Positions 1 through 60,340 are shown, counted from the stretch's first letter. The stretch is 64,000 bases of DNA from a virus (IMGVR_UViG_2922690425_000004:96163-160162), one strand, 5' to 3'. Notes: generated by a model from the sequence alone, not told the origin. A program made the numbers and translations.

Positions 1-316
1 TATAAGTCTCTTGGATATCACATACACAGCAAGAAAGAAGAAAAGCGTGTGAAAGGCTGTAAAGGACTGACTGAACTAACAAAGGAATATACCGATTCTT
101 ATTATCAAAAGACTTTTCCTAAAGGAACATTGTTTTATCATGGTTCACCAGTTGAGCCAGTAACTGATCCACAGCAATTTAAAATTGAGATTAAATCGAG
201 TGGTGGTTCAATTTGGGGGTCAATCAATGAAGTTAATGTGGCACTTAAAGACATCAATACATTGGTCGGCAAATACCAATGAAAATTGAATTTGATCGGG
301 GAACGAGGAGGTAATC

Positions 317-550
317 ATGGAAGAGTTCATAAAATTTTATGATTCAATAAAAAAGTATCATAAAAGTTGGACGCTAGAAGTATATCATTCAGACGTTCTA
401 GATTGGTGTATTTCTGTGGGATACAGAATCGGTCATCCATGGCATGGGCGAACTATAATCCATGTTCAAAGCAATGATATTGAATTGGCTTTCGCAAAGG
501 CCCAAGTGGAACTAAAAGAGTGGCTGTTGGAGAAGGACGGAGGATACTGA
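317..550 (+). CDS. Hypothetical phage protein
   Basis: GAGGAGG RBS, ATG start, lies between sites 280 and 583. Confidence 0.7.
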   Translation: MEEFIKFYDSIKKYHKSWTLEVYHSDVLDWCISVGYRIGHPWHGRTIIHVQSNDIELAFAKAQVELKEWLLEKDGGY

Positions 551-617
551 GCTTTTATTTATTCTAAGGAAATGTAGGACTATAAAATAAAGATTTGATG
601 ATAAAGTATGTACACTA

Positions 618-668
618 TATGAATAGTAGGCTCAGGTAAATAGAAAAATATAGAGCCTACTATTCATA
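618..668. terminator. 16-bp inverted repeat, probable bidirectional terminator
   Basis: TATGAATAGTAGGCTC ... GAGCCTACTATTCATA between convergent genes. Confidence 0.7.
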
Positions 669-685
669 AAATTAATTAACTAAAC

Positions 686-3786: not shown

Positions 3787-3827
3787 AGATTATCAAATAA
3801 GAATTTTACATAGAAGGGAATTAAATT

Positions 3828-5734: not shown

Positions 5735-5929
5735 TTAATTGCCACCTTTAGTGAGAGTTAGTATTTATATTATAAACCTTCTCATTAAATAAAGCACAAA
5801 TAATTGAATAAAAGAGGACTTTTATTGAGTCAAAATTAAACAACAAAGTTTTGATTCTTTTGAACTTTATCTTTCAAAAAGCTGGAAAAATGGAGCACTC
5901 TTCCTAAGTCGAACAAAAACAACAGAGAA

Positions 5930-7631: not shown

Positions 7632-7806
7632 AGTATATCCTCCTTGATATTGGGTTTATATAGTAAGCTGGCCAGCATTACTTCCCAAAAAAACTTACTG
7701 AAAAAGTATAATATGAATAAAAATATATAGCAAGGAAAAGTTTTGTTGCTATTTACTAGTATAAAACATAGATTTTACCATAATACATACAAAAGGATGA
7801 TAAAGT

Positions 7807-8408: not shown

Positions 8409-11400
8409 TGATTTATGGAAAGATACATATCAATTCAAAAAAAGAGGTGAGTAAAATGTATCACTGTATTGGAGTACCCAAGAGGCATTTATTCCATCTA
8501 TCTCACTATGAGGGCTGTGGGGAGAAGTGGGTATTTGATTATGACAAATGTCCGATTTGTAGAGGATACTTAATTCCAGAGTCGCTAATTAGCAAGCAAG
8601 CTAATCATTCTGAAGTTATACAATTGAAAAAAGAAAGTATAGAGGAGGAAAGCAGTTTGCCAAAGCTTCTGTATGAAATTAAAACTTATGAATATGAAAA
8701 TTATGAAGAGTATCTTCAACACGCCGTAGAAATGACAAACAATGGATGGAAATTTCAATCTCAAAGTAACAATCATAAGGAAGTTGTTTGGACAATCGAT
8801 CATAGAAATTAGCTAAAAGAGTTCTTTTATTAAGAAAGGGGAGAATTGGGTATGGGACGCTTCGATAATAATAAACTACAAGTCAACGAAAAGAGAATGA
8901 TTCTTCAACACTACAAAGCTATTAAGGAAACTTTACTTGAGTTACAAGAAGAAACAATGAACAACTTAGATTACTCAGCATTTGAGAGAACGATTGAATT
9001 TATTGATAATAAAGTAAACTTAATTAAGAATAGTTGATGGTCTGTTTCATAAGGAGTTGAACAATGAGAAAAATATCAGAAGCTCAATACAAGAAAATAA
9101 TAAAAATGTTTAACGATCAAGTAAATAAAGAAACGAGCGCGATGACTATCGTGTTATCATCTTGGGGAAGAAATTCTGAATTAGTAAAATTGGAGAATGA
9201 AGCAAGCGCAAAGAAAGAGGAGTTCATTAAACTGTTTCAGTAAAAGGCACGTTTTATAAGTAGGAGGAAATTGATGTATAAGAAGTATTGGAACGAAGAT
9301 GGTAAACAATACAAGATAAAAATTGATGAAGTCAGAGTTAATACAAGCAGAGAACATGGGATGACTTACTACAAACTTGTTCAAAAACTAAAAATCTACC
9401 AGAAGAAAAAATACTGCTTGGGTTGGAAGTGTATTTATATAAATCAATGGGACGAAAAAAGGGGCGAGGATTTAATTAAAAGAATCCGTGAGAGCACTAA
9501 TGATTGCTTCAGTAAATAAATAAAGGAGAGAAATCTTTTATGACTATAAGTGTGCCAATTGAAATTATCAGAAATAATAAAACTCAGGAGTTTATTGAGT
9601 TGCAACAAGTACATGAAAGTTTAGACAACGAATTGAAAAGATGCGCTATTAAGCTGGAAGAATTATATGTCGAATTAAATAAAACAATTAATCCAACAGA
9701 TCGTTATGGTCATTCATACACTTACAACTACGAATACTTTAAGAAACGAACAGCATGGAGAGAAGCGTTGCTTATGCAAGATGCGATTAACGAAGTTGTG
9801 AACGTAGAAGGAGAAATGCAAGAAGTAAATGCGGCATACATAGAAGTCAGAGAGAAACTTAGAGTTATTTATAGAAAATGTGGTATGACAGATGTGGTTA
9901 TTTAAGTGGTGTTGATTTATGTAACAAAAGGAGGATGAATATGTTTTTTGTGGGTCTAGCAGAAATAGAAACTTTTGATGTTGTAGAAACTCCTATTTAC
10001 AATAAAGAGGTTGAAGAGTTATTGCAATATTTTTATGGAGATTACTATGAAATAGCTTTTGTTGTAGAGGGTGAAGCTAAATTTTTTAAGCCGCTATATA
10101 AAGAACCAATTTCGGATCTCCTGAAGAAATGGACATCTAGCTGGAAAGCAGAAGATAATAATGAATATAAAAGTAAACTAGCACGACTAAAAGTAATTAT
10201 TCAGTAAAATGCGTGTTTGATTAAGAATTTAATGTTGTAAATCTAGAGGGAATATGAAGTGATTAAAATCAAAGTTAACACAAGCAGTATTTGTTTGAAA
10301 TGTACACATTTCTGGCATGAATGTGGAGATGCAGTCCAACAGGATGAATACGAATGTCTTGAGACTTGTAGTAATTCAGATGAAGCTATTCAAGAATTTT
10401 TTGAGAATAAACATGAAATAAAAGAATGTAGAGGGTTTGAAAGAGAGTATTAATAAAAAAATAGGAGGTACTGAATGGAATTGGAGTTAATGAAAAAAGA
10501 ATATGAACAAGTGGAATCGGATTACAAATCTGTACTGTCTAGAACGGCAAAATTGAGCATTAGTGAAGAAATGAGTAAACTGAAGCGGAAAATTGATGAC
10601 GAAGAACGTAGACTGAATGCCGAAATAAAGGTTGTAAACATCAATGGAGTTAATTATGAAGTCCCAAATGGATTTGGTTTTTATCGAGAAGTTGATCGTT
10701 ATACATATGAAGTAAAAGATGAATGTTTGTATCGATTTGAAAAGATGAAATTAGATTCAGATGGAAGTTTTCACTTGCACCACCATGTATGGATTCCACA
10801 AAGAGAGGATAAGTTTGTAGATCTCTGTGTTCGTGTTCTGGGTGGTGATAGGTTCGGAGAAAGATACTTTATAAGTGCCAGTTACTATAAGCATCCATCT
10901 GATTCGTTTCCATATATGCACAAGTATGTTCGGACTGACAATTACGGATACAAACCCATCTATTCATATGTTATTGCTAAGATGGGACTAAAGCATAAAA
11001 AGGATAATTGGGACACTAATAAGCTTGAGTGGATTGAAAAGGAGAAGAGAAATGAAGCAGAAAAATGAACAAAGTATTTATGTAGTACAAGGGAGAAGTG
11101 GAATTGTATTTTCTGCAACTTCAAATTACGAAGAAGCCTTAAATGTTATGAACAATTTGAATGAGATGGAATACGGTAGAGCCAGAATGGAACATTGGGA
11201 ACATAATAGAGTTGTGCTTCGGGAGTCGTGATGAATTTATGCAAAGGTGGTGCCAAAGTGGATATTGACACTTGCCCATATTGTAGTGGTAGGCCATTGG
11301 CAGACAGAAAGCCATTAATGAGAAATCACAGTGATGACTATTCAGTTTTCATTAATAGCTGCAATTATCTGGAGGATAGTGTTATTGGTGGAAGCGAACT

Positions 11401-11895
11401 TCATTCATTGTATGGGGTAAAAATATATTTCTGTCCTGTGTGTGGTAGAAAACTGTAGGTTGATGAAATACATATTTTACATAGAAAATAAAAATACAAA
11501 CTCAATTTTATTGGAGGATTATTATGGATAAGATTATTGCTTCAGAACAATTGCTTGACAAGATCATAAATATTGACCCTCCTTTGAAAGCTGCCATGAG
11601 CGACAAAAGCACAAAAACTATTGTTATTAACAAACTAAGTGAAGGATTTGAGGGTATTGTAGCTCATTATCCGCATTTGATCGATGACATCCAAAGAAGG
11701 ATTGTTGAGTATCATAAAAACAAGGGGAGGGATGGGAAGATCACTGATTTCGTGTCACTTGTTGATTGGTACAGTATGAGCTTGTTAGAAAAACCTGCGG
11801 AGTGGTGGGATAGCACAGGAGAATACTTTAATTTAAGAATGAATGAAGTTATCAATATGTTTCTTATGGCTAGATTCAATTTTGGATTGGTATAA
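8408..11895 (+). other. Run of ~11 small hypothetical phage ORFs (8408, 8846, 9064, 9271, 9540, 9878, 10259, 10475, 11025, 11228, 11524)
   Basis: Co-oriented ORFs with RBSs; no recognisable family; several Cys-rich. Confidence 0.65.
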
Positions 11896-12112
11896 AATGA
11901 ACATTTTAATATAAAGGGTGACAAAAATTCTAATTACTTATCTTAATACTGCTTTGGGTATGTTGGCGGCGATGGCAATATTATACCCACCTTGTCGCCT
12001 CATAAGTTTCACTAACAAGTCAAAATTCTCTCATAAAACATATTTCTATGTAATGATGGGGTCATTTATTTTAATTGCAGCGCTACAGAGATTTTAGATT
12101 TTTAAGAAAGAG

Positions 12113-12787: not shown

Positions 12788-13141
12788 ACGAATTTATGAC
12801 GGAGGAATGATAACAATGATTACGAAAGTTCAGGATTACGTTGATACTATGATCAAAAAATTGGAAAGCGAAGGACATCGCGACATTCAATTTCTAAGCG
12901 CTTCTGATTGTACGTTTGTGAAGAATGGAATTAAAGAAGGCTATTTAATGGAAGAAACAAATTTAAACAAAATATGTTCTGGAATAAACTTGAACGAAAT
13001 AGAAGACGGAGTTGAAGTTGTGGGAAGCAAACTAAGAATCTTTAGTATTCCAAAAAGAAAACGTAAAGGCGTAACTTCTGTTTATTATGTAGTAATTCAA
13101 TAATACTAAACTGATAAAATTGGGCTTTTAGAAGGAATGAA

Positions 13142-13723: not shown

Positions 13724-14231
13724 TTTAGAATTGCTTCAGCAGATTTATAAAGTAGCAAGCGCCCTAGATCTTGAATTATGTACTGTATTGAATCGTGGCA
13801 AAAGTACTATGAGTGGTGCAGAGTATGAAGAGTTAATGGAATTGATGATTGAAGTAGAAGATTATTTAGAAGCTAAAGATTTGTAAAAGCATCGTTTTAC
13901 CAAGATAGGAGAATACATAATAATGGCAAAACAGAAGACTAATGTTCAGTATCAGTTTCCACCCAAATCAGACACTGTTTTTAGAATTTACCTTAAAACA
14001 AATCATATGAACAGTCTAATTGTTGTTCGGTTTGAGTTGCTTAGTGGAGAGGAGTACACAAGGAATTACGGGAACATTCCTTCAAATACTCTCTTGGTTG
14101 AATACAAAGGTTATGAATTCGAATTATACATAGATGGCGAATATGTTGGACAAAGAGTTCTTGTTGAAGCAGATAGGAACATGTTTAGATACGATGCTAT
14201 TGAATAGTTATTTAGTTAGTTGTACACTATA

Positions 14232-15288: not shown

Positions 15289-16074
15289 TTGGTGGTGATA
15301 ATATTGGAGATGACGCAAAGAAAAGTAAGAAAAAAATTGCGTGGGAAAATCGGTAGAATCAGACATGCATTACAATTGGTCACTATTTTATTTTATACGC
15401 TAATACTATTGATTTTAGCATTATTGATATCTATTTGGATTGAAGGTATTATACCCGGTTTGCCCAGTATCATCTCTGTCATAATCCCGTACATAGGATA
15501 CTTTGTTCTTGTTCCTTTACTCTATCCTTTGAAATCGAGATATTACATAAGACGGATCATAAAAGAAGAGTATGAAAAATTGAATGGAAGGAATTTAATA
15601 CATTATACCGACCACTTATTTCCTTACGAAATTGAAGAGGCTGAAAGAACTGGGATAATTAGATTGATTGCAAATAGTAGCGCACGTTCAAATTATAATT
15701 TTAAATTCAGTGATGCAACTAAGAAATTTGTTTGGTTTCACCCTTCTCGAACTGATGAAAACAAGGAACCTAAATTTAACTCTTTCTGGTACTCTCATTA
15801 TAGCGAATCAGATCCAAGAGACTATAAGATAATAGTTAATCCAATGAATGTAGATATGAACAGAATATTTATTAGACCTATTGATGGTGCAATAGTAATT
15901 GAAGATGATTATACAGGTGAAGCGAATATAGAAAAAACATTTAATTGGTACAATAGTAAGATATATTTTTGGAGGTCGTTGTGTGTGTCGCCAATCACAT
16001 TCGGTCTTGTCATGTTTATTGGTATTAAGCAACTTATGGGAAGTATTATCGATAGGAAACGCGCAATAAAATAA
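15289..16074 (+). CDS. Membrane protein of unknown function
   Basis: Two N-terminal and one C-terminal hydrophobic segments. Confidence 0.7.
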   Translation: MVVIILEMTQRKVRKKLRGKIGRIRHALQLVTILFYTLILLILALLISIWIEGIIPGLPSIISVIIPYIGYFVLVPLLYPLKSRYYIRRIIKEEYEKLNGRNLIHYTDHLFPYEIEEAERTGIIRLIANSSARSNYNFKFSDATKKFVWFHPSRTDENKEPKFNSFWYSHYSESDPRDYKIIVNPMNVDMNRIFIRPIDGAIVIEDDYTGEANIEKTFNWYNSKIYFWRSLCVSPITFGLVMFIGIKQLMGSIIDRKRAIK

Positions 16075-16490
16075 CACTTTTACTAGGAAACGAGGTGTAG
16101 CAAATGGATTCTCAATCAAAATATAACCGAAGTATGATGGATTACAACAATCTAAGAGATAGCAATAATTCATCAGGATATTTTTTAGAGCAAATAAGGA
16201 AAGGTGAAATAGTAAGAGCAGTGGACTTGTTTGTTGGGGGTCACTATGTTGTTTCACCATTGAATCTTCTGAAGATCAAACACAGAGATAGAAGGTGTGT
16301 TATAGCTGAATTTGAATTAGATGAGTTGGATAATCCCATAAGGGCTAAAGTTCGTTTTGATGACAATAATCGATCAGGTATAGTTGATTTGCACGATTTA
16401 GATATTATTCAAAGTAGCTGATAAAGCAATTCTTTTATTATATATGCTTGGTAAATAGAGTGTGTGACAACATAGAATGGAGGAAGGAAT

Positions 16491-18042: not shown

Positions 18043-18561
18043 ATAAGTAAAGAGTGGCTTGATAGTGATGACGTACTTGAAGAATACTATGACTCAACTA
18101 AGTATGCATTAATTGAATTAGGTGTACAATTAATTGATCCTAAGAAGATCATTGCTTTATCACGGGAACTAAGAGAAGTGAAATTAGAGAGACTTCGAAT
18201 GAAAATAATAAATAATGGTTGGCAGGACGAGTCTCCAACGGATTTTAATCTCATAAAAACATTGGATGGAAATTATGTTGTAGATGGTGGAGGCAATCAT
18301 AGAGCCTATCTCAGTAATGAACTTGAAATTAAAGAAGTGAAAGCTAGAGTGTGGTCTCACGTTGAACTTAATAAATTATCGAAAGAAGAGTTTGATCAAT
18401 ATAAAATATATAAGGATGAAATTTCTGGATTCTATAAACAATTTAAAATTTATAAGATTAGAGGAGACGAAGAGAAACAATTCGAATTTTTACATAAAGC
18501 TGGGAAATTAGAGGAGAAGCTTAAAGCATTTCTTCTAAAAATTTATAACGGATCATTATAA
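18043..18561 (+). CDS. ParB/Srx-like domain protein (frame open from ATA at 18043; ORF track start 18178)
   Basis: YVVDGGGNHRA motif; GGGGGGA RBS before an in-frame ATA. Confidence 0.6.
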   Translation: MSKEWLDSDDVLEEYYDSTKYALIELGVQLIDPKKIIALSRELREVKLERLRMKIINNGWQDESPTDFNLIKTLDGNYVVDGGGNHRAYLSNELEIKEVKARVWSHVELNKLSKEEFDQYKIYKDEISGFYKQFKIYKIRGDEEKQFEFLHKAGKLEEKLKAFLLKIYNGSL

Positions 18562-18593
18562 AACAAATATTTTATAAAGAAAAAGGAGCATAT

Positions 18594-19127: not shown

Positions 19128-20710
19128 TAAATCGTACATTTTACGGGAAGAGTGATATAAAAAATGCCTTGGATTCAGGTTCTTATATTTCTAGTTGCTC
19201 TATTCTATCTACGTGGCACCATTAGATTGGGAAAAGAAACATTGTTTATAAAATTTGTTTTTGTAGTTCTACTGATAGTCGTATTTGCTTTGCCTTTTAA
19301 TTTTATCTATAACGTGTCTCCTTGGAAAGAAGGTCCAGTGTTGGCATGGATATGTTCTTTATTTTATCTAGTATTGATTGTTTACCTTGCAAACATTAAA
19401 CCAAAAGAAAAATAGAATCAAATTTTCCTTTTACATAGAAATGGGGAGATAATATGAGCACAAGTACGGATTATGTGTTGGGGTACAACAAAGGAAGAAT
19501 GGTCGAGGCAGAAGAAACATTAAGGAATTTGTACATTATCTTAGACCAAATGACTGAAATCCCTCATTACTCAAATCATATTATGGTTTACATTCGTGAC
19601 CTTGAGAAAGCCACTGGGAAAAATCGCAAATATTTTTCAGATGAAGAAAACGCATTTGACTGATCCAATTAAAATCTTTCTTTTACTAAGAATGGAGACT
19701 TAGGTATGCAGAACGAGAACAAGCATATGGTTGAAGAGTGCTATGATGCTTTAGAATGGGTCATAATTCAATTTAAAAAAGTTCTATCTGGAGAAGTCGC
19801 AGGGAATGTACAAGAAAGCCTATCCTATGCTGAATCAATCCTTAAAAACAGATAAAAGTTTACTTTGATCAAAAATGGGGGATGTCAATGCAATTGTATC
19901 AATTTTGGTGGGAAGGTTCTTATGAAGGTGATAATGGAGAGCCATTGGCTCATGAAAGTATCTTCACAAGAGAAGAATTAGTAGAAATGGTCAAAGAATC
20001 TGGCAATCGTTATGACTTGGACAGATTAGAGGAATTTTTAATCGAAAATAAAGGGTTTTTCAAGCCCAATTGTATTAGGATCAATACTGAAAATTCCTTT
20101 GGGTAGATAAGTACACGACAACAAGGAGCTACAACAATGAGCGAACAAGAATATAAAATTAAGCTACTTACCAGTAATCAATACAGTGATTTTTATTTTT
20201 ATGCCTCTATCGATGAACTAGAAGAGTATTTAAATGAAACGTTGGCAATAACTCCAGAACAGTTTTTAGAGTGCTACACTTTGGGGCAGTCACGACAGTT
20301 TTTTGAATGGATTAAAGCGAAATCTAATCAAAGAAATCAGAATGAACTAAAGGGAACAAATGAAGAATTAAAAGAAACAAAAGAAGAAGAATAGTAAAAG
20401 GTTGATCTTACTAGGAGAAGGAGGTGAAATTTTGAGTTTATATGAAAAACTGTCGGGAATTTACCATGAATTGGGTTGGAAGTACGAGGAACTACATGTC
20501 GCAGTAGAGGATGATAATAAAAAAGAAATATTACGACTTAATGATGAAATTAACTCATTAATGCAACAAAGCGAAGAATTATATATTGAAAAAATACATA
20601 CAAAATTACCGTAAGAATGCAGATTGGATATGAAGAAAAAATTTACTCGCTAGACATAAATACTTTGAGTAAAAGTTCAATTTTACCAAATACATAGTGG
20701 AGGAAAATAA

Positions 20711-20926: not shown

Positions 20927-21169
20927 CAGCAGGATATACACTAAGTCTAGAAGAGGTCAGGAAGATCATTGTAAAACACCTCAATGAAACGGGTGTCTAT
21001 ATTCCAATGGATGATTCATTCATTATGGTATTGGATGAACACGATCAATTAATCGACAACACAAATGTTTTACAAGTATACCATGAAATTGAATAAAATC
21101 TTCATTTTAAACGATATACATAACTTACCGCTGAAATAGTATATACTCATTTGATATACTGTTAAATGG

Positions 21170-25196: not shown

Positions 25197-25228
25197 GTAA
25201 AATATAGTTTTTACTCAGATTATTTTTT
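25192..25228 (+). terminator. Perfect 11-6-11 palindromic copy of the repeated site followed by a T run (terminator-like)
   Basis: TCTGAGTAAAA-TATAGT-TTTTACTCAGA then TTATTTTTTT. Confidence 0.65.
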
Positions 25229-32975: not shown

Positions 32976-35774
32976 ATGGCTGAAAGAATCTATGGTTACA
33001 ACCATAACAAAGATTACACTGGATTTGTTTGTGAACTAACTTGGACACTTGAAAAGACAATGACTAAATTAGAGGAACTGGGCGTTATCCCTCCAGACGG
33101 TTGGATTCCACACCCAGAAGGATTTTCTGTAAAAGAAGATCATCAAGATGATATGTTGATTCAATTCTGTAATATTGATTCTGGAGAGGATATCGAAGGA
33201 GAACCGTTTTGGATTAAATTTGAGGATGCCGTGTCTTATTGGGCATAGGAATAATTGAATGGATAAATATGAAGCTATAGATAAATATGAGCAGCGAGTA
33301 AATGAATTAGAAATTCAACGAAAAATAATTTTATTGGCTCTTGAGGACAGAGATGTATTTAAAAATAGAGAATTGGTTTTTAAAGAAGTCACAGACATTG
33401 ATGTTCAAATTGCATTATACATAGACGTTATTGAAACGATTAATTCATTAAACTCTAAGTAAAAGTGAGATTTTATCTAAAAAGGAATAGGTGTATATGG
33501 GGTTAAAACCAGAACGTTTGAAAGAGATTACGGAAGCATACTACTCAGACGATGACTTATTTAAAGAAGAAATGATAGTTGAGTTAATCAACGGAGTTAA
33601 TGCATTAAGAGAAGGTTTTGAATGGATCAAGTATGGTGAGGACGATTTCTATAACCAGATTTCTGATACTGCATTTGGAGAAATAAGAAAGTTAGATCCA
33701 CGTTTGAAACCATGGGCTAGTCAAATTCAAGTTATTTACTCAACAGTAAACGAATCATTGAATCCAAAATATTGAGGGGAATTGATAAAACTGACACCCA
33801 GTGAATTTAGGTTTGAATTAATTTGTGATGGGCATCTTGTCAACAAACATAGTGATGGTGGAAAGTACTATGGTTGGGGTAATCCGTTTGATGTATTACC
33901 TCCAGTTGGATCAATTGTTGAATATAAGACATTTAATCAAGGTAGCAATCCCCGTGAAGGAGACGGATTATTAAGTAAATATGTCGTTAAGAACTATTTG
34001 TTTACAACTGAAGAGGATTACAATCACACATATAGACACAAGGTTTGCAAAATTATCGTAGACAAAATAAATCAGTAAAAGGCGTATTTTACATAGACAT
34101 AGGAGCAGAGAAATGAATCTATATAAAATCATGTTTGAGCATTTTTCACAAAAAGATAGCCAAAATGGAATTCTTACTTATCTCGCTGCAAATTCAGACA
34201 GCGAAGTATATGAGTGGTTAAAATCAGAACCATACTCTGAAAGCTGGGGAAATATCTTTAATAATTACAATTACAAAGAAAAAGACAATGAAGTATTCGA
34301 TATTTATGACAATGACTTTAGCATTATAGATCAAGAGAGTTTCAGAGATAGGATGATTAGATTGCATGGAGATATGTACGATGAAGAGGTAGAGTTAAGT
34401 GATTTGTATTATGGAGCAACACTGTATGGATGGAATTTAGTAAGAGAAAATATAAGTTTCAATGATATAAAAATAATGAGGGACTTAGGAGTCAATGTTG
34501 AAATGGGGGGAATCTAATTGAATCATAAAGAGTATGCACCAAAAGTAAAATTGGGGGATGAAGTATGGATCTGTGACTATAGATTCAACGATATAGATAA
34601 TCAACCAATCCGTCACATTACTCCTAGAAAAGTCGTCGTTTTGAGTAATGATAATTTGCCTAAAAATAAACGTGTTTACTATTCTGATTTCCACTTTAGG
34701 CCAGTTAATGAGAAAGGGAAAGTACTCTCACAAATAATTGCTCCTTACGATAACACTGGATATAGAGCCTATACAGGAGTATCGTTAAATATTTTCTACA
34801 CGGAGGAAGAATGTAAACAGCATTATCTAAATCAGTGTATGGAAAATCTTAAGCAGTTTGAGCAAGCCAGGATTAGCAAGGTCAAATATTATGATAAAAA
34901 GATTGAGGAGATAAACAAGGAGATATTGGCTTTGTTGTAATAAAAGCCGCATTTTAAAATAATTATAAAATTGGAGGAATATGAATGACAGAGTATGAAC
35001 TGGTAGTTCCAAAAATGGAGGAGTGCAATAAGTTTATTGTTACCGTTGTTGCAGATTCAAATGACGGAGACTATATTACGACCATTAATACATATACAAA
35101 ACCATATTTTGAAGAGGCGATTGTACGTGATTTGATTGACTTAATTAATAATTACAGCGGACACCATGAATTAGAAAAATATAATGGAGAATTTGAAGAT
35201 TTACCCTTTAATCCTCACGATGATTACGGGCGATGTCATACATTAGTATCTGTAAACATTCGTTTTATTGATAATAAAGGTTTTACGTGGAATGTGAAAT
35301 TGTAAGAGAGTAAAAGTCAAATTTTAATAAGAAAGAGTGGATTTAATGAAATTAAAGAATCTCACATTGGATCAGTTGGAAGAGATGCAAAAAGAAATCG
35401 ATAAAGAAATTGAACAAGTTAAAAGAGCAATGGAACTGGAAAAGTGCGGGCATTTTAAAGAGGAAATTGCCATTTGGGGCCCTTCTTTTGGAGCGGACGA
35501 GTTGGATGAGATTGTTGATCCACTAGAAAAAAACTTTCTTCGATGGTTTTTAAAAACAAAAGTAAATCACAATATTGACTTAGAGAAATATTTTATGATT
35601 TATAAAGTTGCTGATTCAAGCATAAAAGAAGGCTACAGAGACATATCTGTGTATGGCTTCTTCGATGTTAATCCTATGGTGGCCTCAGCAGGAGTAAAAT
35701 ATCCCACAATTCAAATTGGTTTAAAAGGAAGAGAATATTTACTTCAAGAATACGTGAAATATAAGTTTGTGTAA
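32976..35774 (+). other. Run of small hypothetical phage ORFs
   Basis: Co-oriented ORFs separated by sites at 33460, 34076, 34941, 35311, 35772. Confidence 0.65.
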
Positions 35775-35783
35775 AATGCACAT

Positions 35784-35999
35784 TTGAAGGGGGGATGCGA
35801 GATGGACTTTAACAAAAAGTTGATGTTTGAATATAAGAATTATAAAGGTGAAGTGAGTCTGAGACATGTGTATCCTCAAGGTATCCGCTATGGGTCTACA
35901 GAATGGCACCCAGAAGAACAGTGGTTACTTAAAGCTTGGGATTATGCTAAAGGAGATTATCGAGAATTTGCCATAAAAGACATCTTGGGATTCATATAA
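35784..35999 (+). CDS. Stand-alone WYL-domain-like protein
   Basis: FEYKNYKGEVSLRHVYP...QWLLKAWD..KGDYREFAIKDI. Confidence 0.7.
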   Translation: MKGGCEMDFNKKLMFEYKNYKGEVSLRHVYPQGIRYGSTEWHPEEQWLLKAWDYAKGDYREFAIKDILGFI

Positions 36000-36051
36000 A
36001 ATGTACCTTTTACAAACAGTAGACTAAAATAAATAAATAATTAAAATACAA

Positions 36052-36080: not shown

Positions 36081-37374
36081 GAAATTATAATAAAGAAGGA
36101 GGTGAGCAATATGGAACAGATAAGCGGTGCAATACACCACTTGTTATTTGTAGCTTCAATAGCTTATCCTGATGGTACATATCCTCGAAGGTGGGATGAG
36201 TAATGAGTAAAAAAACCACTGAGTTATTAAGAAATGTTGCTAAGCTAAATGATTCAATAGAAAGACTGAATAAGAGTCTTAAAAGTTTAACAAAAGCACG
36301 AATCAGCTTAGAAAAAGCTCAAAGAGACAAGATAGATTTTATAAATGAACGGATGGGGCATATCAATATCAAGAGATGGATTGAAAAAAATGGACGTAAG
36401 TGATGAATTGGCTCAAATACTCGTTAGTTGTTTTATGTGTGATATAGGCACTGAGCAAGAAAAAAAGCTGCATGAAGATAATTATGTAAAGAAGAAACTT
36501 AAACAGTATTTGGGCAAGAAGGATTTTGATAAGTATGATGGACTAAAGGAACAGATTTGGAAGGACGCTTGGAGAGAGTTTGATAAAGTAGTGTCAAACA
36601 AAAATACATAAAAGAGGACAACTTAATATGAATGATGAATTGAAGAGATTTATTGTTGAGGATATGTTGCCTCGTGAAGTCGAAGCTTTGACTATTGCTG
36701 CTGATACATTATATCTAAAGAGAGATAAAGATAGGGAGTATTTAGATGACTGGTGGCTCGTGGTTAGAGCATTGCTAGGAGAAAGAGTAGAGGAATTTAG
36801 AAATTGTCGGATTGTAAATGAATTATATAATTATTTAAATCATAGACAGGAAAATGAGGAGGTAAGGAAACGTGAATTATGGTATTAGAGATATCATTGA
36901 GCTGCATGTGTTTGATGAGGCTGGAAATTTTATTTCAACTATCAATACCCTGAAAAAAGGGAGCATAAGTGTAGCAAATAGAACGATCAGAGTTAAAGAT
37001 GCTCTGTTGAATGGCGACATGCTCAAGTTTCTAAATAAATCGGAAGACACGAAGTCAGATTATGATAAGTTCTTTAGTAAAACTCAAAATTGTGAAACTA
37101 TAGTTTTTAATCGTAGAGTTGTTAATTGCAAACTTATAGCTGAAGGCTTTTATAGAAAACAAGAAAATCAAAAAGATGTATTAGTACAATATGAAATGCC
37201 AAAGTGCAGTATTGTAAGTGCTTATAACTTCAACCATTCTTATATGGGCGATGCAGATGATTTTGATTATGTATTTGAAATAAAAGAGTTTAATGAAAAA
37301 GGCGATTTATTCAAGCTTCATATTGAGAAGTAATACATAGCATTTTAGATAAAACAGTTCTTTTACACAGGATA

Positions 37375-43170: not shown

Positions 43171-43884
43171 ATGACAGCTAAAAATAATAAGCAAGTAAAA
43201 CAACCATTTTACGCAATTAATGAGACAGTATACATCAAGCCACTCAAGGTGAAAGGTGTTGTTAAGGGACATCTGGACGGTTTGACAGTGGTAACATACT
43301 ATATCAAGAATAAAAGACGGACAAACAAGTTTGATGATTCCTTGCTGCGACAATATAAAGAAAAGAAGAGTTCAATTAGAGATAAAAATAAGTACATGAA
43401 ACCTAATGGAGTAAAATTACATGCTTCACCTATTAACACAAAGGGAGAAATGACAAAAAAACAAATCAAAGTAAAATACTTTACTGATATCGAACCTCTG
43501 CAAAAGATTTCTAAGGGTGATTGGATTGATCTTCGTTCTGCTAATGATGTTGAAATGAAGGCAGGAGAATACAAACTTATCCCTCTTGGTGTAGGGATGA
43601 AGCTACCTGAGGGTTATGAGGCCAACCCAGTACCTCGAAGCAGCACATTTAAGAATTTTGGAATCATTCAAGCAAATCATTTCGGAGTTATTGATAACTC
43701 GTATTCAGGTAACGAAGATCAGTGGCATTTTCCGGCTATTGCTCTTCGGGATACTGTTATCAAAAAGAATGATCGAATTTGTCAGTTTAGAATTCAAAAG
43801 GTAATGCCTGAAATCGAACTTATCACTGTTGATGTGCTTGATGATATTTCAAGAGGTGGATTTGGCAGTACAGGAGTAATGTAA
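43171..43884 (+). CDS. dut: Trimeric dUTPase with a ~93-aa N-terminal extension (internal RBS and ATG at 43450)
   Basis: [33 protein letters not shown] motifs. Confidence 0.92.
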
Positions 43885-46039: not shown

Positions 46040-46851
46040 AACATATGAACTTATCAAAAGAAGCAGAAACATTATTGAATTTATGTTGGGTAGACAATGA
46101 GCCGAGATCTACAACTTTCCTTGTTGGTGAAAAGATGATTTTCAATGGAGTCGAGTTTAAGCCAACCGAAGAGACATATGATGAATTACTTGAATATCAG
46201 CAACATTCATTTCGACCATACAAAGTCGAGAAGTTTGGCAAGTTCGTTAATCTCACGGGAAGGAAGGTAAAATAATTTGATTCAAAACATTATACATAAG
46301 ATATTTTGGAGTAAAGCATTTGAGGAAGTCAGAGAAGGACATAGGAAAATGTGCTATGAGCTAGGCATTAAAGATGGTCAGGATGAATTTGATAAAAACA
46401 ATAAATTCTATAAAGAGTTTGCTGAAGCATATAACAAAGAATCAATCATATTAAATTAAATAATACATAGGAGAACAGTTGAATGAAAGTGAGTTACAGA
46501 GTTATTGAGCAGTTTAAAGTGTGTTGTCCAATTAGTTATTTAAAGTGTGATTCAATCACTGATGTTGAATACAAAATTAAAAGGGCAGTTACATTGGGAA
46601 GAAAATATGCTGAACACGAAGACAGAAAATATATACAATACTATCACCTTCAGTTTACAGTACAAAACGGCAAAGTGATTGATTTGATCAAAGATTATGA
46701 TAAATACATAGAAGTAAGCGAGAGTGTAAAAAACGCATATGATCGATTAGAAGGAAAGTTGCTTGTGTAACTCTTCGTAAAAGCCATCTTTTATCAAGAT
46801 GATAAATTCATATAACTTTGTATTAATAATACTAATAGGAGGATTAGCATA

Positions 46852-47132
46852 ATGAGTAAAGTGATTTTTGGAGCTAATAAAGAAATGGTCGGGATGTATG
46901 TGGATCAAGTGTTAGAAAATACGATGACAGTTTAATGGTCTTGGCTCCACCTTCAGGAACGATTAACACCTATGCGCCATCTAAAAAAGGAAAGAACAAG
47001 GGCTATTATCGAGTCAAACTTGAAGTTTGGATTCCTGAAGATGCAATTAAGGGTGAGGACGCATTAAATGATTTTGGCGCATCTATTTTAATGAGACTAC
47101 CCAAAGATAGAGTTGCAGACCATTTGAAGTGA
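46852..47132 (+). pseudogene. Frameshifted hypothetical gene
   Basis: AGGAGG RBS and ATG at 46852; one extra A in GAAAAT near 46915 would join it to ORF 46935..47132. Confidence 0.55.
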
Positions 47133-48401
47133 ACTACGCAAACAATAAAGGAGATGATTCAATGAAAAGTAGTGTGGATTGTGAACTGATTAGTGTTTCA
47201 CTTAGTGGTGAAAATTATTTTGGCGAAGATGTTGAACTTAATGGAAGTGCAAAAATTAAAGTTGATATCTCGATGGAGAAATTATTTGGAAAAACATTGG
47301 AGTGTTCCGAAACAGAATATATCAGTCTGTCAATGTTCTCTAAAGGAACTCAACAAAAAGCAATAGAATTGTTTGAACAAATTAAAACAGAAATTAAGAA
47401 CGAGATAAAAATCTAATTTTATCACTAAATACGGATATGTAAATGGAGGAATAGAATGTGGAAGAAGAATATGAACGTCTTAAAGTGATCAACGACACTT
47501 TAGTTAATAAAGGTGAATACATTTTTAAGGAAGAAAATGCTGCTCAAAAATTTGCAAGAGAAGTGTTATCAGAGGCAGAAAACCAATACTCAGATGAGGG
47601 CTATTATCGCACTTATGAAGATTTCAAAGATTTTCTTTATACTCATCATGTTGATAGTATTGCCTACTTCATTTATGAAGAGAAGTATTCAAACTGATTT
47701 ATGATCAAATACCTGTTTTTTTATTTAGAGGAAGAGTTTCTGATTGTACAAATTAAATAGTTATTGAATAGAGGGGGACGCAAGTGAATAAAATAGAAAG
47801 TCTAATTAATGATTTCATGAAGAGTATCTTTCACGATGAGATAGTTATTGATAATTTTAGTGAAGAGAGCAGAGATATTGAATTCACATTGATTAATAAA
47901 CTCTTTAAAGACGAAACGTATGTGTTGATAGATACTTACTGTCAGGATGAAAACGAGCTTGCCGAATATCTATCCAAATATTTCTTTGATAGTTTTAAGG
48001 AGTATATTGAGGATCTGCGTAAATCAGCGGATTTGGCATTATGCGATGAACCAGACGAAATGGAGTATGAAAATTGTTATCCTTCAATTGACGATATTGC
48101 TTATAGTATGGGGTTTGACATTGACGATGATGGACATTGGACTGAACGTTCAAATGATGATTTTGGATGGTGGAGCTATGACAATTGTGGCCCACACACT
48201 TACTATGAAGAAATAGATGGTGACAATGTTTATGAATATGAAGATCACATATTTTTCAAAACACGCCGAATAATCAATAGGGCAGATTACGAGAAAAAAA
48301 TTATGCCATTTTCAGACCATGAATACAGTGATGATCCGTTTGAAATTAAACCACGACAGAATTTGCAGAACAATTTGTGAATTTCTACTGGAGGAAGATG
48401 A

Positions 48402-49520: not shown

Positions 49521-49552
49521 TTGAAAATAAAAGATAAAAGGAGTAATTAATA

Positions 49553-50299: not shown

Positions 50300-50334
50300 T
50301 ACATACTCTTGATGAAACACTTGTTTTATAGAAC

Positions 50335-51403: not shown

Positions 51404-51592
51404 CTGAACAGAAAACAACTTTTAACCTTCACTATTAACTTATTAACTATATTGACTGCTTGCTGTCTAGTAGGTGCAATTTATGGTCTGATTTATCCCC
51501 AAACTACAACCCCTTGGTTTTGGTTTGGATTCTCTGGAGTTTGTTTATTAAGTGTTGTTTTAGATTATTTAGACTATCGAAAATTGAAGTAA
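51404..51592 (+). CDS. 62-aa two-TM membrane protein with CTG start (not in ORF track)
   Basis: Open hydrophobic frame ending at the TAA of site 51590. Confidence 0.5.
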   Translation: MNRKQLLTFTINLLTILTACCLVGAIYGLIYPQTTTPWFWFGFSGVCLLSVVLDYLDYRKLK

Positions 51593-53361
51593 AACTCATA
51601 TTTTACATAGAGGAGATGATCAAATTTAATGGACAAAGAATTATACAGATACACGAAAAAACTAATTAAACAAGCTTTCCCTAAATACAAAAGAATTCAA
51701 GTGGGTGCTACACTAACCGAAGTGTTAATAGAAAGAAGCGATAGCTACACAAAAAAGATTCCTTTAGTGAAATTCACAGTTGTATGCAATTCGTATGGTC
51801 TTTTTACGACAAATAGACATCAAATAAATGTAGCTGTTGATCAACTGACGAATAGGGTCTATTGGAATTTTGAGAGATTGTAATGGACGATTGGAGATGG
51901 GACTGTGATTATATTTTGGATTGGATTTTTGTTTATGATGGCACAAATGGTACACGTAGGAATTTATAAAAACCTAAAGAGAAACTTTACTTGGAATCAA
52001 CTTGGCTGGTTTGTGCTGGGACTGATTGATGGAGTCTTTTTAAAGTATATCCATAATCTTAGATAAGGAGTGCCTACATGAACAAGAAAAAACTTGAAGA
52101 GATATTTTATTCCAAAGAGATGGAACAGATTAGGCTTGATTATTATAACAATGCATATAATCAGGGAAAATTCGATGAAACAATGAAGAAAATGAATCCC
52201 AAAACATTGATCATTATGCATGATGGAGACTTTGAAGTCTGGAAAGGTAAGGTATGGTATTCAGATAAAGATCAGTACAACATTTCAGTTGAGGGTTACA
52301 TGGGGTTTGAAACTATTCAGCAAGGCATTGAGTTATACGAAATGTTTAATGCAGAACTATTGAGATACATAGAACAAAACGGTGGTCTGAAAGGTAGGCA
52401 CGAGTGGAAGAAGGTATATCATACTAGAGCAGTCGAGGTATCAAACGAACATGATAGTTACTGGATTTTTCTTGATGGATACAAATCTGAAGAGATTAGT
52501 GACCTTTATTGGTATATGTGTGATGTAATTGAGCAACTGAAACGGTTAAACAAAAATTTAAATATAACTAAAATTATGAAAGAGGTAGCATATGAAAATA
52601 GTACTCGATTTACTAACTGACAGCTATAACTCATATTCATCAGAAACAATTGATTTTGAATCTTACAGTGATTCTTCGGAAGTGGAGATAAGGTTGGGAG
52701 ACAGAGTGGTTGGTATTGATAAGCAAGAATTAATTAAGTCAATTGAAGCACTATGTAAGTAAAAGATGCATTTTACGAGGAGATGGAACATATGGCTTTT
52801 GATATTGAGAATTATAAAAATGAAACGCAGTACTATATTGATGAGTTTAAATTATGTTCTTACAAGGACGAAGATGGGTTTCCCAACGTTTATGTTGATA
52901 GAGTTTGGAGTACCATAGACAAAATGGATGAGAAGATGAAAGATAAAGTATTGTTTTGGTTTGCGGCAGAACATCTAACATTGATTAATAAATAAAAGGT
53001 AACTTGTAAAATGAGTAAAGGAGATGTAACGATGAAGATTGAACGCGAAGAAGTTGTTTATACGTATGAAACAGAAGAAGAAGGCATTAATCACCAAAAA
53101 CTGATGGAATCACAAGGGTGGAAGATTAGAGACGTTCACCCTTATATATTAAAAATAACCTATGTTAAATAATTCGGCTTGAATCGGAGGTACAAATTGA
53201 TTCAAAACTACATGGAAATCATGAATAACAAGAAAGATTCTAAACAAATTTCAGATGAAGAATATGCAAAATACATAAGCAAGCTATGGCAGTGGCAAAT
53301 AAATAGTACAACAGAATATTATCAATCGGAGGATGATCATTTTTGATGATCAATAATACAT

Positions 53362-53817: not shown

Positions 53818-54013
53818 TAAAACATGAAAAAGAAAACTTAATGTTTATAAGGGTTTTATGAATCAATAATCTACGTAAAATCCTGATTTCATTGGGATTG
53901 AGTAGGCTACGGCCTACAGATACATAAAATAAGAGAAGCTACCGTTGAATATCAGAAGCACCTAGTGAATAAGTGTTATGTTAATGGCATTAATCATTTG
54001 ATAAAACATATCA

Positions 54014-58200: not shown

Positions 58201-59154
58201 TTGATAAAGGCAGGTTGCTTTGAATCCTTTGGTAATCGTTTAGAGATTATGAAGCAATTTATACATAAAATTTTTACACCTAAACAAAAAGTTACTATGC
58301 AGAACTTTAATGCTCTCAGTGAAAACAATCTGATTCCTGAAGATATGTCCCAATATAAGAGACTGTTCAATTTTAGAAAGTACGTTACCAAAAATGTCTA
58401 TGGAAAAGAAGGTAAAGAGAAGCTTTACTTGCTCGATAAAATTTCCACTCCTTTTTATTATGAGCACTTTTCAGGAGAAGCTATAAAAGACTATCATAAT
58501 AATTTCCCAATTATAGCAGAACGAACATTCAAAAAAGAATACGATAAAAAGATGGAAGGAATAAAGAGTTGGTTAACTGAGGATACTACTCTGTCTCTTT
58601 TAAACTCGAAGTTATATCAGAATGAGTGGGACAGTTTAGCATCTGGAACATTGAGTAAGTGGGAGATGGACTCTTTATCATTTTACTATACAGAACATGA
58701 ACTCCAAAAAATTGACACATTCAAATATGGAATTGTTAACTTTTTTGAATTACCTGAAGAACCAGTAGTTGTTGAAATAATTCAATATAGAAATGGATCA
58801 ACCAGACCTAAATTCAAATTGGATTTTATTGCTGGGACTGTATTAGATAAAAACAAAAATAAAAATACAGTAACGATTCTTACAACAACAGGTGTAGTTA
58901 CTGCAAAATATTATGATGGTGCTTTTGCACATTACAATAAACAAATATCAAAACCAAAACCAGATGGGACTAAAGAAATTATTGAAAAATCATGGTTTAC
59001 GCGTGGTAATAAGTTGATCCTGTTTGGATATCGTAGAGGTTCACAGTTTAGACCTTACAACTATAAAGATTCTAGAGTTAAACATACCACTATATTTATT
59101 GATGAAATCAGAGAAGATGGCACAGTTAAAGTAATTACAGAGCGAAAAAGCTAA
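55210..59154 (+). CDS. dnaE: DNA polymerase III alpha subunit (DnaE, YorL-like)
   Basis: PHP domain LHNH/AITDHE/TTDSHY, SRGSSAG, FPDIDID, KFDLL, GYSFS..H. Confidence 0.95.
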   Translation: MLINLCEKCNSILLHNHVDRGSNLRLRDTTNRVEDLIQTAYDMGHKGVAITDHESISAHVKAIQATEKLKQEGKIHKEFKLILGNEIYLVESLAEVRDNYKSGVTKFPHFLLLAKDEIGHEQLRYMSSKAWTDSFFTGPMLRTPTERFFLRSVIKENPGHLIASSACLGSPHCIYLLEMKSHLENNNREEAKKSYKKVCDFTNWCIEVFGKEDFYLELQPAYSEEQIYCNKQLLLLADKFDLKYIVTTDSHYLRPEDRIVHKAFLNAKEGEREVDSFYEATFVQNHEEINDRLSYLSHDVIMKALNNTIEVGNKIKDYTILKPTIIPKIDLPNFEISGLFRSIYSQYEYIDKMAHSNNSQDRYIVKLIEDGFREYLPYNTYSKEKLHEVAARINTELGELWKISEKMNQSVASYYITVREIVNVIWDDECGNSLVGPSRGSSAGYLICFLLGITQVNPLEYGIEMPHWRHLTAERPEFPDIDIDTEAAKRNQIFKQLKKYFGENQVLQVCTFGTEASKSAVQTAARGLGIDNDTAMYVSGLIPFERGSSWTLSDCVNGNEEKERKPVKEFVAEINKFDNWLNVAMKIEGLVNKRSIHASGVIVFNEEYYKTNAMMTAPNGTHVTQLSLEDCEAVSNMKFDLLTIEGLDKIRVALDFLIKENLMEWQGSIRKTYNKYLHPNIIDIKSQEIYDLIGSDSITDLFQFSTEIGIQTVKRTKPSNLIELAAANSLMRLMGDHNSETPIDSFIRFKKDINEWYTELHENFLNEEEIETMKKHLLALNGVADTQESIMLLSMDKKVAGFTIQEANKLRKIIAKKKANEIEDIKNKFYKKGLELNNRKEILDYVWNKQIVRQLGYSFSVLHTLAYSIIALQEANLNNIYDPIYWRTACLTVNSASIHDEDEDTKTQSTNYGKIASAIGNMQSRGVKIGLPDISKADYGFFPDTELNQIVFGLKGINGIGDDVVQNIIKHRPYKSFDDFIERMFNTSIIKKSQIIQLIKAGCFESFGNRLEIMKQFIHKIFTPKQKVTMQNFNALSENNLIPEDMSQYKRLFNFRKYVTKNVYGKEGKEKLYLLDKISTPFYYEHFSGEAIKDYHNNFPIIAERTFKKEYDKKMEGIKSWLTEDTTLSLLNSKLYQNEWDSLASGTLSKWEMDSLSFYYTEHELQKIDTFKYGIVNFFELPEEPVVVEIIQYRNGSTRPKFKLDFIAGTVLDKNKNKNTVTILTTTGVVTAKYYDGAFAHYNKQISKPKPDGTKEIIEKSWFTRGNKLILFGYRRGSQFRPYNYKDSRVKHTTIFIDEIREDGTVKVITERKS

Positions 59155-59685
59155 AGGAGAATGACTTAATGGACAAGATGAGCAAACATAAGATTGAAAG
59201 TATTTTGAATCGAAAGCTTAGCGAGAAAGAGTATAAAGAGATTGTATCTATCGTACTGAACAAGCTTCTAGAGGAAAGCAATAATGAACAATAATCTCGA
59301 CAGATTTGAAACTCCATATCAGAAGTATAGATTTCCTGATACACAAGATAAGGAGGTGAATAGGTTTTCAACTTGTGCAGGATGTAATGAAGATATCTTA
59401 GTTGGAGATGAAATATTGATCTTGTTTGATGGTTTGACTGTTCACGATGACTATGAATGCCTAAAGAAAGCAAATGGAGCAAAAAGAATTATTGCAGGAG
59501 AGGAATGGTAATTTGAATTTAGTTGGACATAACATTGAATTGATTAAAGAGTTGAAGACACATACTTTGAATCGACTAAAAATTTACAAAAAGTTGGGAT
59601 TTATAGTTGATGAAAAATATGATGAATTAGTAAAACTAGAAACTGATTATATAAATAGTAGAATTAGAACGATGGAGAGTTTTTT

Positions 59686-60261
59686 ATGAAATTAACATTA
59701 AAACTCCCCTTACCAGTCTCCATTAACGATCTATACATAAATCAATATGTTTGGAATCCGAAAAGTAAAACTAGAGTTCCTTCAGGAAAAAGAATACTCA
59801 GCAAGGAGGGAGAAAAAGTTAAAGAAAAAATAATAGAAGCAGCCAAAGACCAAGTTAGCAATCAGATGTGGGATTACGAATATACAATGAATCATTATTT
59901 ATATATGGATTCGATTATTTACTTTAATCGTAAAGGGCGAGACGATAATAACATTTATAAACTCAATAATGATGCATTAGAAAAGATTGTTTACGATAAT
60001 GACAGTAGAGTATTAACCAGAACACAACGTATCCTTTATGACAAAAAGAATCCTAGAATTGAGCTTACGTTTTCCCCCGTTGAGTATATAGGAATATTTG
60101 ATAACGAGGAAACATACATAGAGTTTTTAGAAAACTGTAAAACATGCAGTAGATATAAACGCAATTGTTCCATTTTAAAAGCTGCAACCGAGGGATACGT
60201 TCAAGATGAAATTATTGAGGGAAACTGCTTCAAATACAAGCGGGCGAAGGTTAATGAGTGA
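59686..60261 (+). CDS. RusA-family Holliday junction resolvase
   Basis: LPLPVSINDLY, RDDNNIYK...DAL....YDNDSRV, NPRIEL. Confidence 0.85.
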   Translation: MKLTLKLPLPVSINDLYINQYVWNPKSKTRVPSGKRILSKEGEKVKEKIIEAAKDQVSNQMWDYEYTMNHYLYMDSIIYFNRKGRDDNNIYKLNNDALEKIVYDNDSRVLTRTQRILYDKKNPRIELTFSPVEYIGIFDNEETYIEFLENCKTCSRYKRNCSILKAATEGYVQDEIIEGNCFKYKRAKVNE

Positions 60262-60340
60262 GTAAAAGTAGTATTTTATAGAAGTGTAGATAACTATTTA
60301 TTGCGCCTTCTTTCAACACAAATAGAAAGGAGGGAACAAA

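Follow-up and report, generated by a model that had tools for sequence, protein, structure and literature searches.

In integrons, each gene is followed by an attC site of 57–141 bp, an imperfect palindrome that is recombined as a folded single strand and moves with its gene, and the order of the cassettes is free. Heterospecific lox and FRT sites, used with Cre and Flp for cassette exchange, are man-made: their 13-bp arms are identical, the 8-bp spacer decides which sites pair, and two different spacers give an in-register swap. Stoperators, which share their sequence with the promoter operator, are 13 bp long and asymmetric, follow the direction of transcription and are recognised by a monomeric immunity repressor. 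Here we describe a repeated element, the palindrome TAAAA-N6-TTTTA, in a 64,000-nucleotide stretch of viral DNA (IMGVR_UViG_2922690425_000004:96163-160162, hereafter the window), which forms the end of an IMG/VR provirus record that is 160,162 bp long and rated complete (the full provirus is contig C1). The provirus belongs to the SPbeta-like phages, with a DNA polymerase of 1313 aa that is 55% identical to SPbeta YorL. We suggest, with confidence a little short of even, that a dimeric protein encoded by the phage reads the sites as short stretches of duplex DNA and that they serve as fixed joints for gene exchange through a dedicated Xer-like reaction.

Like integron cassettes, the genes here mostly lack promoters, are followed by a site, and are gained and lost as gene-plus-site units; unlike attC, the 16-bp core does not fold, is positional and keeps a fixed order. 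With lox/FRT the element has in common the same arms and an in-register swap, although spacer-dependent pairing is read here from comparative patterns alone. The pdif/dif modules of Acinetobacter plasmids (PMC6449649) resemble it in having many short inverted-arm sites with a 6-bp centre that flank accessory modules; these modules vary between related replicons while the sites stay, and no integrase-plus-attI platform is involved. The inverted arms round a 6-bp central region that mark Xer/dif sites are found here as well (TAAAA/TTTTA, at spacer 6 only). However, pdif sites have two different 11-bp arms, alternate in orientation and use the host Xer pair, whereas the present sites have identical 5-base arms, individual centres, a fixed order, a phage carrier and a likely phage-encoded reader. 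The PeSL cassettes of T4-type phages (PMC2839356, PMC4122927) are likewise intergenic repeats at the boundaries of indels and replacements in variable regions, a location our sites share; PeSLs, in contrast, combine an early promoter with a terminator hairpin, span tens of bases and are driven by homology, while the 16-bp core with its individual centre comprises no promoter-plus-stem-loop. The stoperators of cluster A mycobacteriophages (PMC9283540, PMC6550527) also occur as dozens of one short site in small intergenic spaces genome-wide, but our palindrome is symmetric and differs in sequence from the operator at promoters (an SPBRE-like box), and so is not of stoperator type. Lastly, the SPBRE of SPbeta (PMC10516654) is a repeated element of these same phages with a tyrosine-recombinase-fold reader; unlike our palindrome, it is built around ATACAAATAATATGTAT, exists in about ten copies and lies at promoters.

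Exact copies of TAAAA-N6-TTTTA number 31 in the window, against 0.89 ± 0.87 in shuffled sequences (shuffle maximum 3), and 56 in the whole provirus. A previous, sequence-only reading of the window had counted 29 exact copies with about one due to chance, which holds for the chance level but not for the count; its estimate of ~54 palindromic sites agrees with the looser pattern TNAAA-N6-TTTNA, found 54 times against 11.2 ± 3.7 expected. When all 5-mer inverted pairs with spacers of 0–14 were scanned without bias, TAAAA/TTTTA stood out, at spacer 6 only (56 vs 2.8). One-mismatch copies show a modest surplus in the window (33 vs ~19 by chance) at arm position 2 (TCAAA/TGAAA and TTTGA/TTTCA), the position at which that reading had seen mismatches gather, and about half of the near matches are thus probably chance. 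Many intergenic variant sites are nonetheless genuine, since the identical centre recurs in relatives at a site with no more than one arm mismatch, and the closest relative, G001, carries exact ones. All 56 exact-copy centres are distinct, again as first described, and none is the reverse complement of another, yet only ~0.75 duplicates would be expected in the genome, so that this uniqueness is uninformative. Centres tend not to begin with A or to end with T, a symmetric pattern, and weak symmetric conservation extends to −6/+22 (an apparent 11-6-11 palindrome), most clearly in SPbeta. The two arms are identical in type rather than two different arms; this symmetry, in the absence of a hairpin or covariation, points to double-stranded DNA read by a dimer, and the pattern as a whole fits a phage-encoded dimer whose binding we infer.

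Of the 56 exact copies in the provirus, our own gene calls put 49 at gene boundaries, and in 12 of these the TAA of the left arm is the stop codon of the upstream gene, both features to which the sequence-only reading had drawn attention. A typical site lies just past the upstream stop codon, or includes it, 10–35 nt ahead of the next start. Sites are found across all transcription units, some of them in divergent or convergent spacers; exact copies are absent from 21109-25198 (helicase/primase block) and from 37365-43196 (nrd block); the sequence-only reading had named the ligase-primase and nrdD-thyX operons as free of sites.

Each centre holds its position regardless of the flanking genes in alignments with relatives. 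In the closest related provirus 43 of the 56 provirus centres recur, 43/43 in identical order; at the loci of eight related proviruses round a RecJ-like gene the centres of the window are present in identical order, and all four close loci are colinear with it. The 34 intervals between consecutive centres shared with G001 comprise 5 that are the same, 19 that are partly replaced and 10 without tblastx similarity, one of the last measuring 5.9 kb. Alignments show 16-bp islands with one or both flanks unrelated, and for the centre GAAGAG (five relatives) similarity ends at the arms. Same-centre site pairs in which both 30-nt flanks are unlike number 131 against ~3 expected, the pairs being non-independent.

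The sites are listed below in window coordinates, none with an assigned strand. G and L denote relative proviruses and loci (G001, the closest relative; G002 and G003, further ones, G003 being the provirus behind locus L018), X5, X7 and X11 are contigs of other assemblies, and gaps are non-homologous gaps relative to G001.

Exact copies (TAAAA-N6-TTTTA):
5809..5824, centre GAGGAC, also in G001.
7762..7777, centre CATAGA, also in G001; divergent intergenic, homology with G001 restarts here.
8814..8829, centre GAGTTC, also in G001.
9241..9256, centre GGCACG, also in G002; left-arm TAA is the upstream stop.
11893..11908, centre TGAACA, also in G002; gives a stop codon.
13115..13130, centre TTGGGC, in G001 and G002; edge of a non-homologous gap.
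13884..13899, centre GCATCG, in G001; gives a stop codon, gap edge.
16067..16082, centre TAACAC, absent from the relatives examined.
18559..18574, centre CAAATA, also in G002; gives a stop codon.
19670..19685, centre TCTTTC, in L013 and L019 with unrelated flanks; an X5 contig piece begins here.
20670..20685, centre GTTCAA; in L013/L014 fused to the right flank of the next site, the interval (889 nt in G001) being precisely lost.
21094..21109, centre TCTTCA; gives a stop codon, an X7 contig piece begins at 21094.
25198..25213, centre TATAGT, in five relatives; within a 13-pair terminator-like hairpin plus T-run, X7 and X11 pieces end at 25213.
26139..26154, centre TTTGAA; the following interval is unrelated in L012, L013 and L019.
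26503..26518, centre GAAGAG, kept in five relatives; left and right flanks largely unrelated.
26840..26855, centre ATATAC; an X7 piece begins at 26839, an X11 piece ends at 26857.
28047..28062, centre CTACTA; gives a stop codon.
31001..31016, centre CGGTGA; overlaps one stop and the following start.
31577..31592, centre TAATGC; chimeric relative to L013, X11 ends at 31593, X7 begins at 31579.
33460..33475, centre GTGAGA; gives a stop codon, X7 ends at 33476, X11 begins at 33455.
34076..34091, centre GGCGTA; gives a stop codon, X11 ends at 34091, X7 begins at 34075.
34941..34956, centre GCCGCA; an X7 piece ends at 34956.
35311..35326, centre GTCAAA, in six relatives; X5 begins at 35309.
35997..36012, centre TGTACC; gives a stop codon, strong sigma-A-like promoter downstream (36052-36080), X5 ends at 36012.
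37350..37365, centre CAGTTC; directly upstream of nrdD, X5 and X11 pieces end at 37366.
43196..43211, centre CAACCA, in G001 and G002; 25 nt inside the 5' end of a called coding sequence (start perhaps miscalled).
46778..46793, centre GCCATC; from pattern match and gene calls.
47406..47421, centre ATCTAA, in G001; left edge of a non-homologous gap.
51590..51605, centre CTCATA, also in G001.
52760..52775, centre GATGCA, also in G001; gives a stop codon.
60263..60278, centre GTAGTA; final site ahead of the serine integrase gene.
Variant copies:
3793..3808, TCAAA...TTTTA, centre TAAGAA; exact site with the same centre at G001:105214.
10205..10220, TAAAA...TTTGA, centre TGCGTG; gives a stop codon, exact site with the same centre at G001:111278.
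11464..11479, TGAAA...TTTTA, centre TACATA; exact at G001:111564, gap edge.
19853..19868, TAAAA...TTTGA, centre GTTTAC; an X5 piece ends at 19866.
35772..35787, TAAAA...TTTGA, centre TGCACA; gives a stop codon, an X11 piece begins at 35774.
50313..50328, TGAAA...TTTTA, centre CACTTG; exact at G001:149699.
53876..53891, TAAAA...TTTCA, centre TCCTGA; exact at G001:153485.
Decayed copies:
25682..25697, TAGAA...TTTTA, centre GTTGGA; exact in L012 and L019.
27459..27474, TAAAA...ATTTA, centre ACAAGA; exact with the same centre in L012, L013, L014 and L019.

Comparison with these relatives indicates that the sites are preferred crossover points between related phages. When contigs of the three other assemblies (X5, X7, X11) were aligned to window 19233-39232, 16 of 47 contig-piece ends by our own count fell within 2 nt of the outer edge of a motif, and entire pieces span from site to site (for example 34075-34956 and 35309-36012). 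In BLAST comparisons with the eight loci, 10 of 92 unique high-scoring segment pair ends lie within 2 nt of a motif edge; a null model restricted to intergenic positions gives 3.1 and never exceeded 9 in 2000 trials. Between SPbeta and phi3T, homology is one-sided at 10/19 motif junctions and at 19/110 motif-free ones (p = 0.0018). Breakpoints at the sites among related phages are what the sequence-only reading had suggested looking for, and they include two gene-plus-site indels with the joint inside the site. In the first, site 31577 consists of the left flank of L013:13584 (TAGTGG) and the centre and right flank of L013:14295, the 711 nt between them being absent here; in the second, at L013:1748, the left flank and centre are those of the GTTCAA site and the right flank is that of the TCTTCA site, 889 nt being missing. 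phi3T has a similar chimeric joint. The centre of a chimeric site always comes whole from one parent, which places the crossover in or at an arm, and such joints of unlike sites have just the 5-bp arms in common.

Three of these places have features of their own. At 31577-31592 and L013:13584 the shared upstream gene stops on a codon of the centre, TAA of TAATGC here and TAG of TAGTGG in L013, and the centre swap left the upstream reading frame closed. Window 25190-25336 holds the TATAGT site inside its 13-pair hairpin, then a T-run and, 95 nt downstream, a perfect TTGACA-17-TATAAT promoter, an arrangement that looks like an operon boundary built round a site. A decayed site at 27259-27274 (TGAAA..., centre GATTCA) lies inside a 189-aa open reading frame (26877-27446); as relatives have an exact GATTCA site between two small genes, this frame may be a fusion or extension over a lost joint.

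We favour a dedicated Xer-like reaction for three reasons. First, 16 identical bases with unrelated flanks are very little for general recombination. Second, the joints of unlike sites have only 5-bp arms in common. Lastly, recombinase-fold genes that are otherwise unemployed are conserved, the integration step being already served by a large serine recombinase. Under the mechanism we propose, each joint separates the stop codon that ends one gene or module from the ribosome-binding site of its successor and has its own 6-bp centre. The protein would bind the arms, and strand exchange would take place at the edges of the 6-bp centre, as in a dif/Xer-like reaction. Productive exchange would presumably need two sites with the same centre, so that two phages could cross over only at matching positions and would swap the content between joints while keeping its order; a rare crossover of neighbouring unlike sites would lead to the gain or loss of one gene and one site. 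A more specific proposal, about which we are rather doubtful, is that of a natural cassette-exchange system, in which a phage Xer-like protein (YomM-like and/or YopP-like) would recombine only sites with matching centres and the centres would act as addresses.

The sequence-only reading had proposed recombination sites belonging to an integron-like cassette system. Its recombination part is supported by whole-gene replacement, by breakpoints at sites and by the presence of Xer-like genes; its shuffling part is contradicted by the strict colinearity of the shared centres (43/43), and the comparisons indicate exchange that keeps gene order rather than integron-like shuffling. A true integron-like system, in which any site would recombine with any other and promoterless cassettes would be captured, excised and reshuffled, could account for gene-plus-site indels with the joint inside the site, for the lack of a strong promoter of their own in most genes between sites and for the tyrosine-recombinase genes. 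We nevertheless regard it as highly improbable: no relative departs from strict colinearity, each centre belongs to a position and moves with neither neighbour gene, and there is no foldable attC-like structure (core minimum free energy −0.08 kcal/mol). In addition, none of the three Phage_integrase-fold genes lies at the head of the array, and no IntI/attI platform turned up, although no search was aimed at one.

The same folding data bear on a signal acting at the RNA level in the polycistronic transcripts, for instance one for processing, translation or weak termination. In long operons the sites follow a stop codon and precede a ribosome-binding site, which would suit such a role, and the copy at 25198 does lie inside a real terminator-like hairpin. 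This is, however, the only one of 16 sites in a hairpin. The core has a minimum free energy of −0.08 kcal/mol and 40-nt contexts fold no better than their neighbours (−3.19 vs −3.60 for nearby 40-mers), there is no covariation at the base pair adjoining the arms or at the ends of the centre, and pairing beyond the arms is not above chance. An RNA hairpin or terminator was rejected on these grounds. Symmetric arms, moreover, have meaning on duplex DNA but not on single-stranded RNA, and copies occur in divergent and convergent spacers, so that we give an RNA signal hardly any credence.

Other identities were considered and rejected. Regarding the SPBRE/MrpR operator, ChAP-seq (chromatin affinity precipitation with sequencing) of MrpR gave just ten peaks, all SPBRE (PMC10516654), and the upstream regions of 9 of the 10 ChAP-seq genes have a box around ACAAATACAAATAATATGTATA, not TAAAA-N6-TTTTA. 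The provirus has its own SPBRE-like box, ATATACAAAAATAA, at no fewer than six (at least 6) promoter-like places separate from the palindrome. It recurs as ATATACAAAAATAA(A/T)TAAATAT, a second repeated box, at window 25595-25616 and 45413-45434 and at C1:59886, 60769, 64165 and 72388, beside −10-like hexamers, and is probably the operator of this phage's MrpR-like repressor. A sigma-A promoter was rejected since the two strong sigma-A-like promoters in 20 kb each lie downstream of a site and neither overlaps one. For a reader of the CRP/FNR type, which also has 5-6-5 geometry, the provirus gave no HTH_Crp_2 match; Pfam ParB_N has no match in the provirus either.

The element is widespread among SPbeta-like phages. 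SPbeta itself has 34 exact copies against 2.4 expected, likewise at junctions of stop codon and ribosome-binding site, and phi3T has 30. Related proviruses have 57 (G001), 16 and 5 exact copies, compared with 2–3 for reversed-pattern controls, and an SPbeta-like phage of Staphylococcus has 17 (vs 2.9). In G003, where exact copies number 5, it is TGAAA-N6-TTTCA that is enriched (12 vs 0.7 expected), both arms having changed symmetrically; another relative has mixed arm forms. Such symmetric drift of both half-sites is expected of a dimeric, phage-encoded DNA reader specific to each phage. At 60–160 kb of G003 many sites are half-changed, and centres in common with the window are retained. The provirus and SPbeta have two centres in common (GATGCA and GAATAC, vs ~0.5 expected), which we take as chance.

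This distribution also bears on a host factor as the reader, either XerC/XerD (CodV/RipX in Bacillus), as with the Acinetobacter pdif modules (PMC6449649), or a nucleoid protein that recognises A-tracts and T-tracts. In its favour, the core is identical in phages of Bacillus, of the host of the provirus and of Staphylococcus, and the 5-6-5 layout round a 6-bp centre is reminiscent of dif. The A4-N6-T4 pattern is in helix phase, and helix-phased A4-N6-T4 DNA is bent. We think a host reader improbable all the same, because the symmetric TGAAA/TTTCA shift in one relative and the mixed forms in another speak for a reader that differs among close phages, and because the arms are identical whereas dif has distinct XerC and XerD arms. 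Enrichment is found only in phage DNA, with reversed-pattern controls at 2–8 per genome. The arms presumably also differ from the dif sequence of B. subtilis.

As to the reader itself, the window holds no tyrosine recombinase, in agreement with the sequence-only reading, and three genes for proteins of the tyrosine-recombinase fold lie elsewhere in the provirus, YomM-like, YopP-like and MrpR-like. In alignments with XerA, XerH and XerD, the YopP-like protein (C1:55121-56170) has R, K, HxxR, H and Y in place. A phmmer search of the protein against the PDB gave no match, Xer structures being reached only with a three-sequence profile, and the YopP profile matches IntI4 at E = 0.0011 only. The YopP-like gene is itself variable, since it and its counterpart in the otherwise closest relative are just 46% identical. 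Unlike in SPbeta, the gene lies outside the yopQ-mrpR operon, 30 kb off, beside a divergent 853-aa gene that probably encodes a YonO-like RNA polymerase. The YomM-like protein (C1:31945-32946) scores over the Pfam cut-off for Phage_integrase and is 59% identical to SPbeta YomM, above the identity of the polymerase; homologues were found in 4 of 4 further phages searched, the Staphylococcus phage included. Against the PDB, the YomM profile gave only a weak N-terminal match to Cre. The MrpR-like gene comes after a YopQ homologue that is 28% identical. Published work calls YopP XerC-like and assigns it no function, and no phage paper on yomM was found. We infer that the catalyst is most likely a phage Xer-like protein of the tyrosine-recombinase fold, the YomM-like one being the best conserved and the YopP-like one having the full catalytic set.

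Several observations weigh against dedicated joints for exchange. Beside a homologous flank, centres are conserved about as well as the flank (0.85 vs 0.83; 0.95 vs 0.97), and we make no claim of extra purifying selection on them. The 11-6-11 extension may be a by-product of upstream stop codons and downstream ribosome-binding sites. The junction effect between SPbeta and phi3T drops to p = 0.06 when limited to roomy early-region junctions. Among the 51 non-homologous gaps between the whole genomes, 19 touch a site with one boundary or both; only one of these 19 lies within the first 55 kb (the late region), and sites account for a minority of all homology breakpoints. A laboratory hybrid, Hyb1phi3Ts-SPbeta (MT366946), has one major SPbeta-to-phi3T switch in a 5.1-kb stretch (45080-50185) without distinguishing k-mers, inside a ~99.7%-identical late block; this is a switch as ordinary homologous recombination would give, and says nothing for or against the sites themselves. 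With respect to the proteins, YomM-like proteins and SPbeta YopP carry HxxK rather than HxxR, YopP identity does not follow the form of the motif, and the motif-bearing Staphylococcus phage yielded no YopP; the last two points make YomM, weakly, the better candidate by distribution. MrpR, a paralogue, is a proven non-catalytic DNA binder (PMC10516654).

A substantial but lesser chance is that the sites are regulatory or architectural docking sites, as a silencing roadblock of the mycobacteriophage stoperator kind or for KorB/ParB-like loading, and, being the one sequence that stays constant between variable genes, only incidentally act as crossover points of short homology, similar to PeSLs, through general recombination or a relaxed recombination system of the phage. 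MrpR sets the precedent of a recombinase-fold protein as a pure operator binder (PMC10516654). yopQ and mrpR are reported to be expressed in lysogens, and yopP so in one of three data sets (10.1101/2021.11.22.469490); YopQ, a homologue of which is present here, has a ParB-like domain (PMC8612738). An intergenic palindrome of dimer type in all transcription units, divergent and convergent spacers too, would suit a docking role, as do centres no better conserved than their linked flanks and a laboratory hybrid that crossed over in long homology. A phi3T gene similar to SPbeta yorG is annotated pfam13479 AAA_24, so that this domain, which we take to be a marker of a Sak4-type annealing protein, occurs in the phage family. 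Incidental crossover is harder to reconcile with 16 bp of identity, which is far under the usual need of general recombination, with flanks often unrelated up to the site, or with unlike-site joints that have the 5-bp arms alone in common. The sites, furthermore, bracket multi-gene modules and variable genes rather than promoters, the two strong sigma-A-like ones in 20 kb being free of overlap. The known repressor, MrpR, does not bind them, given that its ChAP-seq peaks lie only at the ten SPBRE (PMC10516654), and the provirus has no Pfam ParB_N or Crp-type helix-turn-helix match.

The provirus consists of a minus-strand late block followed by a long plus-strand stretch of small genes (our gene calls). 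Near the end of the window lie the gene for the large serine recombinase (60537-62321) and then host hflX (62714-64000). A phage gene at 54066-55040, directly upstream of the DNA polymerase gene, encodes AAA and AAA_lid_6 domains (a SpoVK/CbbX-like ATPase), which is of note given that the sequence-only reading had placed the prophage in spoVK. Window 37381-43091 carries an anaerobic ribonucleotide reductase (NrdD with an ATP-cone) plus an aerobic pair, the small subunit of which has an N-terminal ATP-cone.

SPbeta is a model temperate phage of Bacillus subtilis, yet its 34-copy element is missing from the literature covered: searches on the motif string, yopP and yomM found it described nowhere, with mention of SPBRE only (the 1999 SPbeta genome paper was not covered). 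Should the sites be docking sites of a global regulator, they would form a second genome-wide control layer beside MrpR/SPBRE. If they are dedicated exchange joints, they would provide a testable mechanism for the old idea of linkers between phage modules, explain how accessory genes turn over within a constant architecture in large temperate phages, and give the conserved recombinase-like genes yomM and yopP a job. A system of matching centres, if true, would allow accessory genes to be exchanged between co-infecting phages and resident prophages one slot at a time, with gene order intact.

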